A stretch of 12,388 nt of DNA from Pseudomonadota bacterium. GTDB lineage: Bacteria; UBA10199; 2-02-FULL-44-16; JBDRGF01. The stretch spans positions 1-12,388 of the forward strand of contig JBDRGF010000074.1 in assembly GCA_043818055.1 (NCBI GenBank), given 5' to 3'. Shown one piece after another: positions 3,001 to 12,000 of this stretch (position 1 is its first letter; each line of letters opens with the position of its first letter). Position numbers: made by a program.

Positions 3001-6000
3001 GCTGAGAAAAATAATCGTGATTTCGACGGTGAGTTTATTGCTGGCCGGGTGCGCGGGGATACCCTTCCCCAAAATTACGACTCCCAAGAAACCAGAAACG
3101 GTTTATAACTGGCGGGAAGAAGTAACTACGAAGCCCAGGGCGATAATAGCCGACGATAAGGCCTATGTAGTTGAGGAAACAAAAAAGACACTACAGGTAG
3201 GGCTGGAGACTACCCATCGCAACTTGACGCTGGGAGAGAAAATCGGCAACTGGTTTTCAGGGTTGAGCCTGCTGGCTATCATTGCTTTGGTTGTGGGATT
3301 GGTTTTGTGCCCGGGCGCCACTTTGGCCTGGCTGGTCAAGCTTCTTTTCAAATGGAAAAAGGCAATGAGAGAGACAGTGGCCGCTATCAAAGAATCCAGG
3401 GCAGTCGAGAATGCGGAATTGCATAATGCCCTGAAAGATAAACAAAGCGTCGAGACCAAAAAGATAGTCGGACAGATAAAGGCGGATCTTTAAAAATATT
3501 GCAGAATAAGGTGAATCTTGGAAAGCAAGAAAAGATGAAAGAATGAGTTGCATTCCCTTCTCTTTTACGGTCTACTCCCCCTATAAAGGAGGGGATTTTT
3601 ATGGTTCGTGAAAACATAACGGCAAAGAAGACGCGGTATATCAGTGTCAGAAACGGCGGCGAAGAGACGTATGTCGAGAATATTCCGGTATCCGGCCGGA
3701 TGAGGGATCACCTGCCAGCCGCAAAACTGCGTCTGCGGGAGATTCAGCGCGTGATGCCTCTTGGCAAATGGTCGATTACGATCGAACAGCAATGGAAGGA
3801 AAACGGCGTTACGCATTTCCAGATGCTCGATGTTGTAACCGGCAAATTGCAGGAGTCGGTGCTGTGACGGGCAAATACCAATGGCCAGCTTCGCGATTGG
3901 GCGATAAAGAGATGGCCTTGTTGTTTCGGGAGAAGCAGAAGGCCAAAAGGAGCATCTGCGAGTTGTTGCGCAGAGCTGTCGATATTGCCTATGGTGAGGA
4001 TTCTGGCAAAAAGGAGGATCAAGATGGCGACTAAACAAAAGCAAAAACGTAAGAAACAAAAGGCTGTAGAAGATAAAAAGGTTTCAACCGTAAATTCTCC
4101 ATCGCCTAAAGAAGGAATTGTTATGCATGCCGGGGCATCGCGTAATGAACTTATGATGACGGCCAAGGAACGCGGGGTTAAAAACTTCCGCGTGCTAAAC
4201 AAGCAGGAGCTGATCGATGTATTGAAGAATATCGGAGATCAGAAAGCCATTAATACGATTGTGACCGGTGCGGTTGCCAGATGGAAATCCGGCTGGGGTA
4301 AGAGAAAGGACAAGAATGAAAGTCAAAGCTGAACTTGATTTAAAGGTTGAAATGGGCGGCGTGTCGCATGACGGCACTGGATGTCAGGGTTATCTGCCGG
4401 AAGGTACGCGGTATGAGGATATTGTCCGGGTGTTCGGTGGACCCCAGCTTGGCAAATCGCCGGACGGCAAGATCAAGGTTGAGTGGGTTGGTAGGATCAA
4501 CGGCCTTCTTTTTACGATTTATGACTACAAGTCAAAGACTGATCCGGAGCAGAATATCGATTGGCATATTGGTGGGAAGACAAAATTTACAGCGGAATTG
4601 GTGAACTTATTCTTTAAAGCAAAGCAATAACCATCTCTGGATCAATAAATCAGAACCTCTGTTTGAAAAATAATCAATCAGAGGTTTTTTGTTGACACTG
4701 TTAGCTAACAGTGCTAACATATAGATATGGCTCAAGAAACTTTGGGGAACAAAATCAGAAAGGAAAGAAAAAAAAGGTCAATTTCTCTAAGAAAGTTGGC
4801 TGAGAATCTTGAAATAGCGCCAGCTTATCTTGTTGATATCGAAAAGGACAGAAGGATACCTTCTCAAGATATCATCCAGAAAATTGCCGACCTTCTTGAT
4901 GTTCCCATCGTTGAACTCCAACAGTTTGGATCTGATATTCCGAAACCAGTCAAAGAATGGCTTGAAGGAAATCCCGTCATTTCAAAAATCTTGAACCTCA
5001 TCAAGAAAACATCAATTCCCGAAAAAACAATTTCTGATTTTGAATCTTTTATTAAAAGTCCCCTAAATAAACAACCAATTCTTGCTATTTATGAATCTGA
5101 ATTACAGGCAATCGGACAAGAAAGCATTTCTTGGGATACAGAAACGGGAGGAGATCTTTTTGGTGTTAGTGGAGAGATGCCGATAATATACTTAGCAACA
5201 AGGTCTGGGCCGAATACCATTCGGAATCATGCTCATTTTCGTTTAGATGTTGAGTACCTAATAAAGTTGAGTATTGATCTTGATAATGATTGGGGACTGA
5301 GATATTTCGGAGATTGGCATTCCCATCATCGCTTAGGGCTTCAGTTCCCTAGCTCGGGAGACCAAAGAAGAATAAATCAAATTGCCAGGAAGAACAATTT
5401 TTTAGAAATGGCCGAGATGATTATTACGTTTTCATCATCGTTTGATTCGGATAAAAAAGTACAAGTAAACCCATACGTTTATTGTGAAGTTGTTTCAGAG
5501 GCACCAGTAGAAGCCGCTTTGATTATTTTAAAAGGATTAAGTCCTGTTCGGGAAGTTCTTCTCAAATCAGGAGGTTTCTCGGAACAACGCTTATTTCAAT
5601 ACTCTTCTTTTTCCATTGATCACATCATCGCGCCAAGAGAGCCTCTCGGAAGATTGCAAAGTGTAGAGGGTCTCCCAATTGACCAAATAACAGGAAAGGT
5701 ATTAAGGCGGGTAATATTGGAACTGGAGAAATTGTCTTGCGGAAAAATTGAAGAACACAAAACTCAATTCGGGCTTGTCTTAGTGGCACCAATAAATGAT
5801 GAAGAATATATTGGTTTTGCTATCGATGGTAAATGGCCGCATCAAATTCTTCAAATCAATTGGATTAATAGAAAAACAGGAAAGACTGAGGAGTTGCCAA
5901 TGCAACTAGATAATGCGACGCTTATAAATTTGCCGCGGTTGAATGAAATTTTCTGCAAAGCAAAAGATTTTAAAATTGCAAAATGACTATGGAAGAACGA

Positions 6001-9000: not shown

Positions 9001-12000
9001 TTTATAGCACGGATGATAGTTTAAAAGCCCCAATGATTCGGAATGTAGAACTCAAAGTTGCAGAGGAGAAATTTTTGCAGGACAAAAATTTTCATATCGT
9101 TCCAATTTTTAAGTCGGGTATTGAAGCATCAAACATTGCTCTTAATGGCTGTTTGAAAACTAAAATATCAGACTTTAATGGAACCATCGTTAGAGATAAT
9201 GATCTCATGGCGGCCGCGCAGAGAGCAGCCTCTCTAGTTTTAAAAAATTTGAGTTTTCCAACGAAAGATTTCCTACCTGTAGGGGTAGTTTCATATCAAA
9301 AAAACTCTGATGACGTTGCTTTAAACCTCGATTTCACTCCCTATTTTCAGGAAGGCTTGCCGCTTGAGAAAACATGGAACAGAGAGTTTGTACCCGCTAT
9401 CGCCTCCTTAAAAGAATCCTTATTGTCAAAAAGAATCACGAATTTAAGATTGTTTTCTCGTGCCCATCTTTCCTTTGGACTTATGTTTGGGTATATCTTT
9501 CGGGATCGGACAGGATTTGTTATTGAGGTTGAACAAATCAACAAACCCAATAGAGAAATATGGAGTACTCAAGCGAAAGAGGAGAGTACTATGCTTACGA
9601 TTGAATGCACCCCAGTAACCAATTTTGGCGTAAAAGACATTGTAGTTAATTTGAATATTATATCGGATGATAATAATTCGTTTAGCAATTACGTTCAAAA
9701 ATCAGGTCTTCGCTATCGGGCATTGATAGAAGCAAAGCCGTCTTCTTATCCTTTCTTGATCTCCAATGGTCAAGCAGTTGTAATCGCTCGTGAGTTAACA
9801 AACAAAATCAAAGAAGCCCATGGAACATATAATACAAATGTTGTGCATCTATTCGCTGCGGTTCCATTTGGTCTTGCCGTAATAATCGGACACCAACTAA
9901 ATGCATGCGGAAGGATTCAATGTTATGAATTTGATAAAGCCAAGAGAGAATATTCCCCTTCGGTTACGTTAGAAAATTGAGGAATATTAATGCTCGATAT
10001 AAAAACGCTTGTGAGCTATGGTTGTGGGATGCAATGTGCAGTATTGTCGAAATTCTCGACACGATGGAGAAAAAGGACAAGAAGTAATGACGAATAAAAA
10101 AGAATTATCAGAACGGGATATTTGCACGCAATTCATTCTTCCTGCCCTTGTAAAGGCTGGATGGGATGTTGCAAAGCAAATCAGGGAAGAGGTTTATTTC
10201 ACTGACGGGCGTATTTTTGTAAAAGGCAACAAAACTGCTCGGGGTGAAAGAAAGCGCGCCGATTTTATTCTATATCTCAAACCGAATATTCCAATCGCTG
10301 TCATTGAGGCGAAAGATAATAACCATTCCGTTGGGTCCGGCCTACAGCAGGCGTTGGGTTACGCGAAGATACTCGATATTCCGGTTGCCTTCAGTTCAAA
10401 CGGTGATGGATTTGTTCAGCATGATCTTTCCGGGTTCACTCCAGCGATTGAGAAAGAATTATCTTTAGATGCTTTTCCCTCCCCTTCCGAACTTTGGCAG
10501 ATGTATAAAAAACATAAAAAGATCACAACTCCCGAACAGGAAGAAATTGCATCATTCGATTATTTTTTTGATGGGTCAGGGCGTGCGCCCCGTTACTATC
10601 AGCAAATAGCAATAAATAGAACAGTTGAAGCAATCGCGCGCGGCGAGAACAGGGTTCTTCTTGTAATGGCTACCGGTACGGGTAAGACGTATACGGCTTT
10701 TCAGATTATTTATCGCCTTTGGAAAAATGGGCGTAAGAAACGAATCCTTTTTTTAGCAGATCGCAATGTGCTTCTGGATCAAACCAAGCGAAATGATTTT
10801 AAGCATTTTAAAGATCGAATGACGGTTATAAAAAAGAAGAAGATCGACAAAGCGTTTGAAATATACCTTGCTCTTTATCAGGGGTTAACGAACTACAACG
10901 AGGATAAAGACGCATATAAAGAATTCAGCCGGGATTTCTTTGATCTTGTGGTTGTTGATGAGTGCCATCGCGGGAGTGCAGACGCTGATAGTGCTTGGAG
11001 AGCGATATTGGAGTATTTTAGCTCTGCGACCCAGATCGGTCTTACGGCAACGCCGCGGGAAACAAAAGAAATTTCAAATATAGAATATTTCGGCGATCCT
11101 ATTTATACCTATACACTCAAACAGGGTATAGAGGACGGATTTTTAGCTCCTTACAAAGTCATACGTGTCGGACTCAATACCGACCTTGAGGGTTGGCGTC
11201 CGGACGCAGGCAAAAAAGATAAGGACGGCAATGAGGTTGAGGATCGGATTTATAACACTAAAGATTTTGACAAAAACCTTGTTATCGATGAACGGACAAA
11301 GATTGTAGCCAAGAAAATTTCAGAGTATTTAAGAAAAACCGACCGTTTTGACAAAACAATAGTATTTTGTGTTGATATTGAACACGCCGAACGCATGAGA
11401 CAGGCGTTGGCTATTGAGAACTCGGATTTGGCGCTTGAGAATTATAAATACATCATGCGAATAACCGGTGATGATGATGAAGGTAAACGAGAAGTAGACA
11501 ATTTCATAAATCCCGAAGAGCGTTATCCGGTTATAGCCACCACTTCAAAGTTGATGACCACCGGTGTTGACGCGCAGACCTGCAAATTGATTGTGCTTGA
11601 TTCAAATATCAAGTCGATGACTGAATTCAAGCAGATTATCGGGCGTGGGACACGTATTAATGAAGAATATGGTAAAACTTTTTTCGCCATTATGGATTTT
11701 CGCAATGTGACCGATCTTTTCGCTGATCCGGCTTTTGATGGTGATCCTGTTATGATCAAGCAGGTTAAGGGAGAAGAGGAATTAACAGACCAAGATATTA
11801 ACCCGGAAGAAGGTCAGGAAACCATTGATCCTGATACTGGAAAGCCGGTTGATTTCGAAAAAGAAGAAACAAAAGAGTATTCGGTTCAACCAGAAATTAT
11901 CCAAGGCGGGTCAATAGTATCCGAGCCTCAGCCGAAGATTTATGTGGCAGGCGTAGATGTTTCGGTCTTAAATGAGCGGGTTCAGCATTTAGATGCGAAC

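Follow-up and report, generated by a model that had tools for sequence, protein, structure and literature searches.

A CBASS operon carrying a portable JAB–E2–E1 cassette and a microprotein that is a candidate Phe-terminated tag

The operon described here is best read as a CBASS variant in which a cyclase is coupled to a tagging cassette, with a 59-residue microprotein serving as a trimmed, activated and conjugated non-ubiquitin tag that ends in Phe; this reading is given a probability of about 0.65. The window, the whole 12,388-nucleotide stretch of contig JBDRGF010000074.1 that was analysed, contains six ORFs of the same direction, whose coordinates confirm the gene set reported in the genome-wide survey's note. 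The genes overlap at four junctions, and a gap of 9 nt separates E2 from the microprotein. The features are as follows:

1–4630, + strand: right end of a prophage-like element that carries genes for tail and probable lysis functions and small accessory genes; flanking context outside the system
4654–4692, + strand: hairpin with a T run (13-bp arms at 92% complementarity, loop of 7 nt), where transcription of the phage genes probably ends
4690–4720, + strand: promoter, TTGACA (4692–4697) and TAACAT (4715–4720) spaced by 17 nt, 10 of 12 consensus matches
4690–4719, + strand: palindromic operator overlapping the promoter, core GTTAGCTAAC, recognized from the sequence
4727–5986, + strand: HTH (residues 1–70), JAB/JAMM metallopeptidase (about 116–290) and C-terminal α/β domain (317–419); Pfam HTH_3, PADLOC JAB
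5983–6447, + strand: stand-alone UBC-type E2, catalytic Cys107 (codon 6301–6303); conserved residues, profile and Atlas neighbours
6457–6636, + strand: 59-aa microprotein, candidate modifier, AGGAG Shine-Dalgarno upstream; homologues, pS/pN and complex model
6636–7952, + strand: E1, Atg7/Cap2-type N-terminal domain and ThiF adenylation domain; sequence and a model of the homologue P0009
7942–8820, + strand: compact CdnD-like CD-NTase of 292 aa without the type II C-terminal tail; PDB profile matches
8817–9980, + strand: TIR-SAVED effector, probable NADase, exchangeable; Pfam, PADLOC and 7QQK TIR-SAVED (E 2e-11)

The survey's domain labels, HTH_3 and JAB (Pfam, PADLOC), ThiF E1, SMODS CD-NTase and TIR_2 with SAVED, are reproduced, while the 154-aa and 59-aa proteins have no match in Pfam or PADLOC and no significant one in NCBIfam. 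Its gene order recurs, with JAB before E2 and E2 before the microprotein in 88 of 88 complete CBASS loci. Of the 80 metagenome loci, E2 is present in 64, the microprotein in 62, JAB in 61 and the CD-NTase in 60. Its count of E1 homologues stands as at least 235 at E ≤ 1e-20 among 8000 candidates scored, the threshold having been given as E < 1e-30. The loci are related, and locus counts therefore overstate independence.

The microprotein has 57 close homologues and 296 representative clusters at E ≤ 1e-3, and is under purifying selection (mean pS 0.89 versus pN 0.20, 97 comparisons). Its HMM is positive between E2 and E1 in 133 of the 142 loci having both, the remaining nine containing candidates found by eye, and matches no unrelated ORF within the same loci; the protein itself has no match in the Atlas. 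Among 100 rows spanning Omnitrophota, Acidobacteriota, Pseudomonadota, Actinomycetota, Bacteroidota and Cyanobacteria, the terminal aromatic residue is Phe in 99 and Tyr in one, and is the sole position fixed across phyla. The A-D-M-F described as invariant is so in the CBASS branch, but family-wide the Phe alone is kept. The residue that follows is variable, and in two copies a stop comes directly after the Phe. The variable tail had been taken as a sign of processing; its sequence is mostly dictated by the ATGA overlap with the start of E1, and taken alone it shows only a lack of selection behind the Phe.

The predicted layout consists of a helix, a β-hairpin (about residues 23–38), a short helix, Phe57 (codon 6625–6627) and a two-residue tail. 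With 57 residues up to the Phe the protein looks too short for a typical β-grasp, and its helix-hairpin-helix is predicted at pLDDT 43–64, so that the fold is uncertain. The microprotein is fused to the N-terminus of E1 in 49 of 160 loci; among the matches listed, 11 of 120 E1s are such fusions, and the E1 tree shows four fusion/fission changes. In the fused model E1 reaches a pLDDT of about 90 from its own start, which makes the low-scoring microprotein part unlike a built-in piece of the E1 N-domain. Tandem microprotein repeats, which look like ubiquitin precursors, occur in P0193, P0209, P0239, P0298 and L065, and L071 carries one free and one fused copy. The survey's note mentioned neither these fusions nor cassettes lacking a CD-NTase, both of which are frequent here.

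E1 contains the motifs GxGxxG (136–141), D160, R171 and K183 and two zinc-binding CxxC pairs (273–276 and 396–399). It has a single adenylation domain with a crossover loop of about 33 residues and no Cys domain, which rules out the Bil-type IAD-AAD-CYS architecture. Cys is absent from 220 of 221 distinct crossover loops, whereas Tyr is present in all 221; in the window this is Tyr301 (codon 7536–7538), conserved 7–12 residues ahead of the loop end. Since the E1 Cys of Cap2 is dispensable in vitro (10.1101/2022.03.31.486616), the conserved Tyr may be structural. Atg7 (3vh2_A, Z 24.2, 331 residues, rmsd 12.4) is matched over both domains by the model of the fused homologue P0009, whose residues 60–447 align with residues 171–600 of Cap2 (7to3_A, Z 20.1, 325 residues, rmsd 5.7). 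The model's adenylation domain resembles BubCD (Z 23.5), a residue-level alignment of Tyr301 with BubCD Y370 not being obtained; with MccB (Z 24.2) and PaaA (Z 22.1), ThiF-type RiPP maturases typified by an RRE leader-binding N-domain and export/immunity genes, the alignment is limited to the adenylation domain.

A model of the microprotein–E1 complex supports binding, with a score of 0.64 against 0.00 for the best of three controls; 116 of 157 solved pairs and 2 of 215 mismatches attain the mark that it passes. A second run scored 0.44, the runs having at least 67% of contacts in common and a partner pLDDT of at least 49. The modelled interface comprises microprotein residues 52–57 and E1 residues 136–141 (the ATP loop), 228–232 and 252–256, and the hairpin (24–29) pairs with E1 386–391, all of the best-resolved pairs being hairpin contacts. 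The output, which gives interface residues, includes no F57–ATP contact, and Tyr301 is absent from the list. Because the two proteins are often one polypeptide, the pass may reflect split-gene pairing or a likeness to ThiF or UBA5 complexes.

The 154-aa protein is an E2, as proposed, on the strength of its sequence conservation, profile and Atlas neighbours. H94, C107 and W114 are invariant in 93 of 93 aligned homologues, which excludes the catalytic Ser of Bub E2s. The profile matches an RWD protein best in the PDB (E 5e-4), then FANCL and dozens of UBC E2s (E 0.05–1); UQ_con is weakly matched by 14 of the 93 family members, and 15–35% of the members among the ESM Atlas neighbours (score 0.95) carry PF26395, E2-CBASS. 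No E2–E1 fusion occurs: each of the two has its own ORF, both in the window and in all 141 loci with E2 found.

In the JAB protein (AF2 model, pLDDT 93.6) the metal site is intact, the JAMM residues E139, H198, H200, S209 and D212 being invariant in 81 of 81 rows. The JAB domain is closest to archaeal Rpn11 (VIA Z 16.5, rmsd 2.7, 156 aligned residues) and also resembles Cap3 (Z 13.6). The C-terminal domain reaches only Z 6.5–7.4, to FP, UEV, FANCL and Cap2-E2 domains, and its model is possibly that of an RWD or pseudo-E2. The HTH is joined to JAB in 54 of 160 loci, in line with the survey's caveat that not all JAB homologues have it, and is better explained as an autorepressor, limited to part of the family, that binds a dedicated operator and would repress its own promoter. 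The promoter/operator arrangement is alike ahead of nearly all HTH-JAB genes; an operator-like word occurs in 53 of 54 HTH-fused and 2 of 27 HTH-less loci, a count that is circular since the pattern was composed from the HTH-fused loci themselves. The ATG lies 6 nt past the −10 box, so the mRNA is probably leaderless.

The CD-NTase retains the catalytic G-S...D-x-D...D (SMODS, PADLOC cyclase) and adjoins TIR-SAVED, as in a CBASS core. Its best PDB matches are 7LJM (E 7e-43), 9SA4 and the cAAG synthase 7D48. The motif LFGTKF aligns at residue 352 of the 382-residue 7LJM, leaving three residues where 7LJM has 30, and in 85 distinct homologues the tails are of 1–7 aa with one exception of 15 (L088); the enzyme thus lacks a Gly/Ala-ended tail, as had been noted. 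The "conserved F" reported near the end of the CD-NTases is the generic end-of-fold motif of CdnD enzymes, and its parallel with the microprotein Phe is probably coincidental. The effectors of 95 distinct CD-NTase loci are nuclease-SAVED (40), TIR(-SAVED) (17), 1TM (16), NucC (10), cut (9) and other (3), which makes four types rather than the three families counted before.

The core of the system is a portable tagging cassette, JAB–E2–microprotein–E1. A CD-NTase is adjacent in 102 of the 160 related loci and absent from 42, and these 42 still keep the microprotein and all catalytic residues, so that another substrate is needed there. The operon had been described as CBASS with a split Cap2; it is a CBASS variant with separate E2, E1 and JAB, but not simply a split Cap2, for E1 lacks the catalytic Cys of Cap2, E2 is of the His...Cys...Trp UBC type and 42 loci have no CBASS. 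The proposal that the microprotein is the conjugation substrate probably holds, with the CD-NTase not being one, in view of the E1 fusions, tandem repeats, complex model and phage copies.

In the proposed mechanism, JAB would first cut behind Phe57 and release the short tail, tandem copy or fused E1. The tag would then dock on an E1 dimer via its β-hairpin, as modelled, bring its C-terminus to the ATP site for adenylation of Phe57, and pass to Cys107 of E2 directly or through Tyr301 of the crossover loop, as an aryl ester of the Bub kind. During phage infection E2 would join the tag to a target amine and JAB would undo the bond, by analogy with Cap3 and BilC. In CBASS loci tagging would most likely activate the tailless CD-NTase, itself modified or bound by a tagged protein, and a cyclic oligonucleotide, probably a trinucleotide, would fire TIR-SAVED; gene linkage is what suggests this coupling, whose odds are about even once tagging is granted. 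A CD-NTase that is an E1 substrate can end in Ala as an alternative to Gly. A bulky Phe in this place would be unprecedented, since the C-terminal residue of the E1 substrates characterised so far is small (Gly in the papers cited). Bub (PMC11601596) offers a precedent both for a Tyr-E1 and for a modifier that JAB frees from its fusion with an enzyme.

A possible, though less probable, alternative departs from this scheme at its last step while keeping the microprotein as a tag: the cassette would be a defence of its own, tagging phage proteins as Bil does, and CBASS a linked passenger or a guard fired when a phage decoy jams E1. The cassette does stand alone in Actinomycetes and Cyanobacteria, beside Thoeris-like TIR genes in L039 and beside AAA+ ATPases elsewhere, its CBASS-linked rows group into a single nested branch (SH-aLRT 91; rooted at the midpoint only), and fragments of the microprotein are found on phages. 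Inside that branch, however, effectors are swapped and the CD-NTase never is, its gene abuts or overlaps that of E1 and its usual tail has been lost, which suggests dependence over mere linkage.

It is unlikely that the microprotein binds E1 non-covalently, as a subunit or pseudo-substrate that plugs the substrate site, and that the true substrate is the CD-NTase, cleaved at an F-x end of its own in the way of type II CBASS. Plugging would explain the in-frame E1 fusions, which are frequent and interconverted by small junction indels, and E1 binding is predicted. Within the principal fused branch, 33 of 34 CD-NTases end in F-G-x and 35 of 36 microproteins continue F-A/G, but the F-G pattern is almost wholly confined to that branch. 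Retention of the microprotein without a CD-NTase, and a CD-NTase that stops so soon after its fold-forming motif, speak against such a subunit, to which tandem repeats are also hard to fit.

It is similarly doubtful that the microprotein is activated without being attached to protein and ends up as a processed peptide, or coupled to a lipid, nucleotide or small molecule, that acts as a signal or toxin in the manner of MccB/PaaA RiPPs or Atg8-PE. Short peptides are ThiF-family substrates, as the likeness to MccB and PaaA recalls, isopeptide tags seldom have a hydrophobic C-terminal residue, and the E1 shares its architecture with Atg7, which lipidates Atg8 (10.1101/2022.03.31.486616). The conserved Cys-E2 and intact JAB argue instead for a cycle of transfer and reversal, no transporter or immunity gene recurs among the clustered neighbours in the subset scanned, and in 11 related loci, most of them from Bacteroidales, E1 is directly followed by a ClpB-like AAA+ gene, as would suit a protein tag recognised by an unfoldase. 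An origin of the free microprotein as by-product of programmed −1 frameshifting to a microprotein–E1 fusion, suggested by ATG TTT TTA at the window's junction and an E1 frame open back to the Phe codon, is largely refuted, as just 2 of 55 junctions contain a slippery heptamer, 15 of 51 have a closed E1 frame and offsets vary from 3 to 24 nt.

Of the known systems, Atg7 with Atg3/Atg10 and Atg8/Atg12 shares the N-terminal plus adenylation domain layout of the E1 and likewise pairs it with a stand-alone E2 and a small modifier that is processed; unlike this E1, Atg7 carries a Cys in its crossover loop, and the E2 here resembles canonical UBC rather than Atg3/10. Atg8 and Atg12 are β-grasp proteins with a Gly end. 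Type II CBASS of the E1E2/JAB class (Cap2/Cap3; E. cloacae Cap2-CdnD, PDB 7TO3; operon type 6b of Iyer et al. 2006) likewise combines a CdnD-like CD-NTase, a SAVED/NucC-type effector, an E1 with an Atg7-like linker domain, a JAB with an intact metal site and a substrate that, here probably, is not a β-grasp protein. There the E2 is fused to E1, the crossover Cys is C548 and the CD-NTase tail is extended, whereas the present family has a dedicated 57-aa Phe-ended protein and a cassette also found outside CBASS.

Bub operons (6E/DUF6527; PMC11601596; PDB 9EA4/9EA5) share a homodimeric-type E1 whose crossover loop has one conserved Tyr and no Cys, a modifier fused N-terminally to a pathway enzyme and released by JAB, and HTH-type regulators nearby. 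They differ in a β-grasp Ubl ending in Gly, a Ser-E2, JAB-E1 or E2-E1 fusions and BubE; here the E2 is a Cys-E2, the modifier is fused to E1 and ends in Phe, and the E1 N-domain is of the Atg7 type. Bil (BilABCD; PMC10557695) also has separate E1, Cys-E2, JAB and modifier genes in a defence setting, but BilD has a catalytic Cys domain, BilA is a β-grasp protein with a C-terminal Gly and there is no cyclase. The Gly end of both is ruled out for the microprotein by its conserved Phe and the variable residue or stop after it. In E2-only type II CBASS (Serratia SmCdnG-SmE2; PMC12948482; PF26395) the UBC-like E2, of about 150 aa, also stands alone, but E1 and JAB are both missing and the clade G CD-NTase is long, with an extra C-terminal domain that binds E2 and ends in Gly; this class is ruled out by the E1 and by the short CdnD-like enzyme.

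The operon flanks a prophage end, as reported: window positions 1–4627 are 86.7% identical to two IMG/VR contigs (L234 and L235) that continue leftward into long tail-type ORFs and carry other cargo, a methylase-like gene (read by eye), at the operon's position. GC content is 46.8% in the prophage-like part, 38.7% in the operon and 43.3% in the genome, and the system occurs in one of 93 genomes of the host's class. A terminator scan gave no call for the hairpin at 4654–4692.

The hairpin pattern of the microprotein was found in 15 IMG/VR contigs and its helix pattern in three more, with the full cassette in one of the 18; the other 17 carry the E1-docking part without the cassette. Control patterns (C-terminal, JAB, E2) matched in IMG/VR only the one cassette-bearing contig, although their sensitivity is similar (91, 88 and 66 of 94 host loci, against 85 for the hairpin). 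The pieces reach 93% DNA identity over 98 nt to host microprotein genes. Phages have thus taken the E1-docking part of the tag, mostly without its terminal Phe, and the pieces are probably E1-blocking decoys; two copies keep a Phe in terminal position (L170 ADMF, L164 ADRF), which a pure decoy would not require. The microprotein is probably a new kind of tag, unlike ubiquitin and with a fixed C-terminal Phe, and its cut-short copies in several phages may be decoys.

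The true unit of this system is a four-gene cassette that encodes, in order, the JAB protein, a stand-alone E2, the microprotein and the E1. A search with the E1 alignment gave 225 confirmed matches in genomes and 117 in metagenomes, and the 80 best of either set were taken as related loci. In these 160 loci, none of which was dropped, the JAB gene is present in 136, the E2 in 141, the microprotein in 135 and an adjacent CD-NTase in 102; the CD-NTase is absent despite at least 900 nt of downstream sequence in 42, and 16 are cut short. The CD-NTase-free loci, from Actinomycetota, Bacteroidota, Cyanobacteria and others, keep the order JAB-E2-microprotein-E1 and carry a diverged microprotein. 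A scan led by the microprotein confirms how tight its link to the cassette is, with an E1 no more than 4 kb away in 43 of 47 genome matches, the others being one cut cassette and three orphans. On a tree built quickly from 136 distinct E1 sequences, the rows linked to CBASS group together in a single branch (SH-aLRT 91); the root is a midpoint, so that the direction is only suggestive.

Genes other than the CD-NTase also adjoin the cassette. A ClpB-like ATPase lies directly 3' in 11 related loci and other ATPases in a few; cassette and ClpB-like ATPase together are a possible tag-and-unfold system. In loci of the Muribaculaceae type (L057:3827-8915, L061, L063, L065, L066 and L076) this ATPase does not reach the cut-off for ClpB, and five of the loci continue with a 336-aa unknown protein and a DUF4407 protein. 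The cassette of L039 (7975-9487) overlaps into Thoeris-like genes (two ThsB-type TIR proteins and one PDC-M50A match), the CD-NTase being absent, while those of L043 (7988-10825) and L146 (7991-10768) are followed by a large ATPase with weak similarity to CedD/HerA and by three further common genes. For the actinomycete loci a recurring downstream partner was sought and none was seen. On their 5' side a protein of 390-420 aa with no family match is encoded (L046:3826-4986, L047, L051 and L153), which has at its C-terminus a Y-P-x-x-P-P motif as in RWD/UBC folds. The JAB protein is fused to a long region in L048-L054.

The microprotein gene is coding: it possesses a Shine-Dalgarno site, and pS is 0.89 against a pN of 0.20 (97 comparisons). 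The genome-wide survey's note described the protein as conserved up to an invariant A-D-M-F and variable after it. In a 100-row alignment with identity down to 9%, the terminal position is Phe in 99 rows and Tyr in 1, and the next residue is free. How long the tail is depends mostly on its overlap with the start codon of the E1 gene. In L103 and L108 the protein stops at the Phe. Three precursor-like forms are seen directly in the sequences: the microprotein with a short tail, its fusion to the E1 N-terminus (49 of the 160 loci, with four changes on the E1 tree) and tandem copies (P0193, P0209, P0239, P0298 and L065), of which P0193 holds two near-identical copies with G-F at the end of each. 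The Bub system offers a precedent, its modifier being fused to an enzyme and released by a JAB protein (PMC11601596). A programmed frameshift at the microprotein/E1 junctions was rejected, the slippery site not being conserved there.

A complex of two E1 chains (residues 1-410), two microproteins (residues 1-57) and ATP was modelled and scored 0.64, with 0.00 for the best control. The mark for such scores is passed by 116 of the 157 solved pairs and by 2 of the 215 mismatched ones. The value of 0.64 may owe something to a resemblance to E1-Ubl complexes whose structures are solved, or to the frequent union of the two proteins in a single chain. Contact agreement is at least 67% and the partner pLDDT at least 49. 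The hairpin of the microprotein is placed against E1 strand 386-391, and its residues 52-57 are listed with E1 residues 136-141, 228-232 and 252-256, which are the ATP loop and the segments lining the modifier tail in ThiF/MoeB-type complexes. The model supports, rather than proves, binding of the microprotein to the E1, and a direct contact between F57 and ATP is not among its outputs. In a model of the fused form the microprotein segment is a helix-hairpin-helix of low confidence, while the E1 folds well from its own start. A search of the ESM Atlas with the microprotein gave no usable match. The microprotein behaves like a modifier, one that would be cleaved, conjugated to a target and involved in control of the cyclase.

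Invariant features of the E1 are its ThiF adenylation motifs and two CxxC pairs. In a model of the fused homolog P0009, both domains align with Atg7 as well as with the portion of Cap2 made up of linker and E1. Among 221 distinct crossover loops (11 of 284 sequences, mostly fragments, yielded no loop), Cys is absent from 220, and a Tyr stands 7-12 residues before the loop end in all. In Bub, a Tyr of this kind forms an oxyester and the partner is a Ser-E2 (PMC11601596); a residue-level match between Tyr301 of this E1 and Y370 of BubCD was sought and none was obtained. Since the E2 here has a Cys, the simplest reading would be a relay from a tyrosyl ester on the E1 to a thioester on the E2, which was not found in the literature searched. 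Alternatively, the modifier could pass directly from the adenylate to the E2, bypassing the E1 Tyr, and the dispensability of the Cap2 E1 Cys in vitro (10.1101/2022.03.31.486616) speaks for such a transfer. A single-sequence E1 search of genome contigs gave no match where the alignment-led search did; against viral contigs the alignment gave no confirmed match, and one cassette-bearing viral contig emerged from DNA patterns. The E1 frames of L045, L055 and L133 are broken.

The E2 residues H94, C107 and W114 are invariant in all 93 homologs, and sequence and profile comparisons give consistent though weak UBC/RWD matches. The JAMM residues of the JAB protein are invariant in 81 of 81 rows, and its model (pLDDT 93.6) matches Rpn11 (Z 16.5) and Cap3 (Z 13.6). 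Its C-terminal domain, possibly a pseudo-E2, shows weak matches to RWD/UEV-type folds (Z 6.5-7.4), with a probability of 1.7% in the pseudo-E2 profile comparison.

The HTH domain is missing from part of the JAB homologs, as had been noted before. A promoter, TTGACA-17-TAACAT, with an internal palindrome lies 6 nt 5' of the ATG, and this layout recurs 5' of almost every HTH-JAB gene; the core differs in the fused branch. An operator-like palindrome is present in 53 of 54 HTH loci (a partly circular count) versus 2 of 27 HTH-less loci. In four loci a CapP-like gene, preceded by a separate HTH, lies directly 5' of the JAB gene (cluster C18; PADLOC capP, E 1e-6 for L018). The HTH is thus probably a removable autorepressor. 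In several NucC-type loci (L001:4298-5056, L096 and L101; cluster C14) the gene just 5' of the HTH-JAB gene encodes 252 aa and matches nothing in Pfam, PADLOC or NCBIfam.

The CD-NTase is CdnD-like, with a cAAG synthase among the closest structures. It is devoid of the tail of type II enzymes, in agreement with the reported lack of a Gly/Ala end; type II CD-NTases insert this tail into Cap2 (10.1101/2022.03.31.486616). Its conserved Phe closes the fold, judging by the alignment of LFGTKF with residue 352 of the 382-residue 7LJM. A role for this Phe as a processing site parallel to that of the microprotein was rejected, the motif being a generic one of CdnD. The effector is swapped between loci, as the survey had proposed: 95 distinct CD-NTase loci carry nuclease-SAVED (40), TIR(-SAVED) (17), 1TM (16), NucC (10) or other (3) effectors or are cut off (9). 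NucC, Cap4 and TIR-SAVED are trinucleotide-activated. In L033 (6818-9130) microprotein, E1 and CD-NTase share one ORF, possibly through a frameshift or an assembly error, and in its near twin L032 they do not. A second, unrelated pair of E1 and JAB genes is located just 3' of the CBASS in L083 (8900-11300).

All six open reading frames reported for the operon are present in the sequence where the survey had placed them. The operon has a GC content of 38.7%, as against 46.8% for the left flank and 43.3% for the genome, in which it occurs once; the microprotein is present in 1 of 93 genomes of the class. Two features flank the operon:

Window 4027-4332: among the phage-side accessory genes, one for a small basic protein that includes a Rho_N-like (phrog_2724) segment
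Window 10090-12388: the HsdR subunit of an EcoAI-family type I restriction system, 3' of the operon and cut by the contig end

Window positions 1-4627 are 86.7% identical to two IMG/VR contigs that bear another gene at the position of the operon, and the closest copy of the operon (L081, 91% identical) has chromosomal surroundings; the operon is therefore mobile cargo at the end of a prophage-like element. A PHROGs scan of ten left-flank proteins gave a single weak match, so that the prophage call, which upholds the prophage-flanking position proposed before, rests on the IMG/VR match. In the IMG/VR relatives a methylase-like gene, judged by eye (L234:10780-12492, L235:10979-12691), occupies the place of the CBASS (window 4630), and the end of this prophage type is a variable defence-cargo slot. 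L081 retains 235 bp of the phage-side end (4739-4973, 84% identical to window 4460-4694), left over from the end of the same element. Several related loci (e.g., L081, L003 and L118) likewise have type I R-M genes 3' of the operon. Intact copies exist in the cultured, non-pathogenic strains Mesorhizobium loti DSM 2626 (L027, with a fused microprotein-E1), Bradyrhizobium spp. and several actinomycetes.

Fragments of the microprotein have been captured by phages. A DNA pattern written for the hairpin found 15 IMG/VR contigs, and one that covers helix and hairpin found three more, with agreement extending to residues outside the patterns. An E1, E2 or JAB gene is near the match in one contig only (3-5 kb were fetched and some matches lie near contig ends). 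The 17 orphan contigs reduce to about 14 distinct proteins, either stand-alone truncated copies or a hairpin inside another ORF, and in 10 of 12 orphan loci scanned the neighbors match phage families (DNA polymerase, helicase, terminase, integrase, etc.). DNA identity to host microprotein genes is as high as 93% across 98 nt in L161 and 94% across 63 nt in L163. The latter prophage has a captured hairpin in each of two separate ORFs (2286-2329 and 3320-3363).

Control patterns for the microprotein C-terminus, JAB and E2 each matched only the cassette-bearing contig despite a comparable sensitivity on 94 host loci (91, 88 and 66, respectively, and 85 for the hairpin), and so phages keep the segment that contacts the E1 in the model and mostly drop the Phe end; the copies in L164 and L170 keep the Phe at the terminal position. 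These fragments may act as decoys. The GenBank phage collection yielded no tblastn match to the microprotein, and a single-sequence search of viral contigs with the homolog P0213 gave none either. The phage claim is based on IMG/VR and genome loci, since the 150 listed microprotein-like representatives come without genomic context; a crude rule, which sorts some of them wrongly, puts about a third in the group without a terminal Phe, and 11 of the 150 are long repeat proteins that probably matched by chance.

The best explanation, to which we give a probability of roughly 65%, is a CBASS in which the cyclase is coupled to a tagging cassette and the microprotein is the tag. The system is real and, within ubiquitin-like conjugation in bacteria, a new variant. 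Type II CBASS and Bil work similarly, but by their defining features the system belongs to neither, as it is without a Cap2 fusion, an E1 Cys, a CD-NTase tail and a Gly-ended modifier; with Bub the common features are limited to the Tyr-E1 and the precursor logic. The available text on Pycsar-like-4 loci lists E2-like, E1-like and JAB genes and mentions no peptide there (10.64898/2026.08.12.744502). The cassette is not described in the accessible parts of that report or of PMC11601596, 10.1101/2022.03.31.486616, PMC10557695, PMC1779556, PMC7159879 and PMC12948482. Literature searches brought up no account of the operon, of a modifier ending in Phe or of modifier mimicry by phages; the operon could appear under E1/JAB CBASS in supplementary catalogues (Burroughs 2015, Millman 2020, Ledvina 2023).

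The microprotein has a fair chance of representing a new modifier class. More tentatively, and at somewhat below even odds, all parts may be joined into one scheme: a non-beta-grasp tag of ~57 residues would be conjugated via its C-terminal Phe by an Atg7-like, tyrosyl-ester-forming E1 and handed to a Cys E2, as a portable module of CBASS (where it would gate a tailless cyclase), of AAA+ unfoldase operons and of other settings, and phages would resist it by blocking the E1 with fragments of the tag that they have captured.

In bacterial E1/E2 pathways, as far as the literature available describes them, the substrate is a beta-grasp protein or the signalling enzyme itself, joined via a small C-terminal residue. 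The cassette points to a third option, a dedicated mini-tag with a bulky aromatic end, and suggests a Tyr-to-Cys relay. In its organization, an E1 of Atg7 architecture that works with a free E2 and a small modifier subject to processing, it parallels autophagy conjugation more closely than Cap2 does. Tagging is here separated from the cyclase, and the system therefore offers a clean way to ask what conjugation contributes to CBASS activation and which target is tagged. The phage fragments are candidates for a new class of counter-defence, modifier mimics, and are independent evidence for the importance of the microprotein in the conflict with phages.
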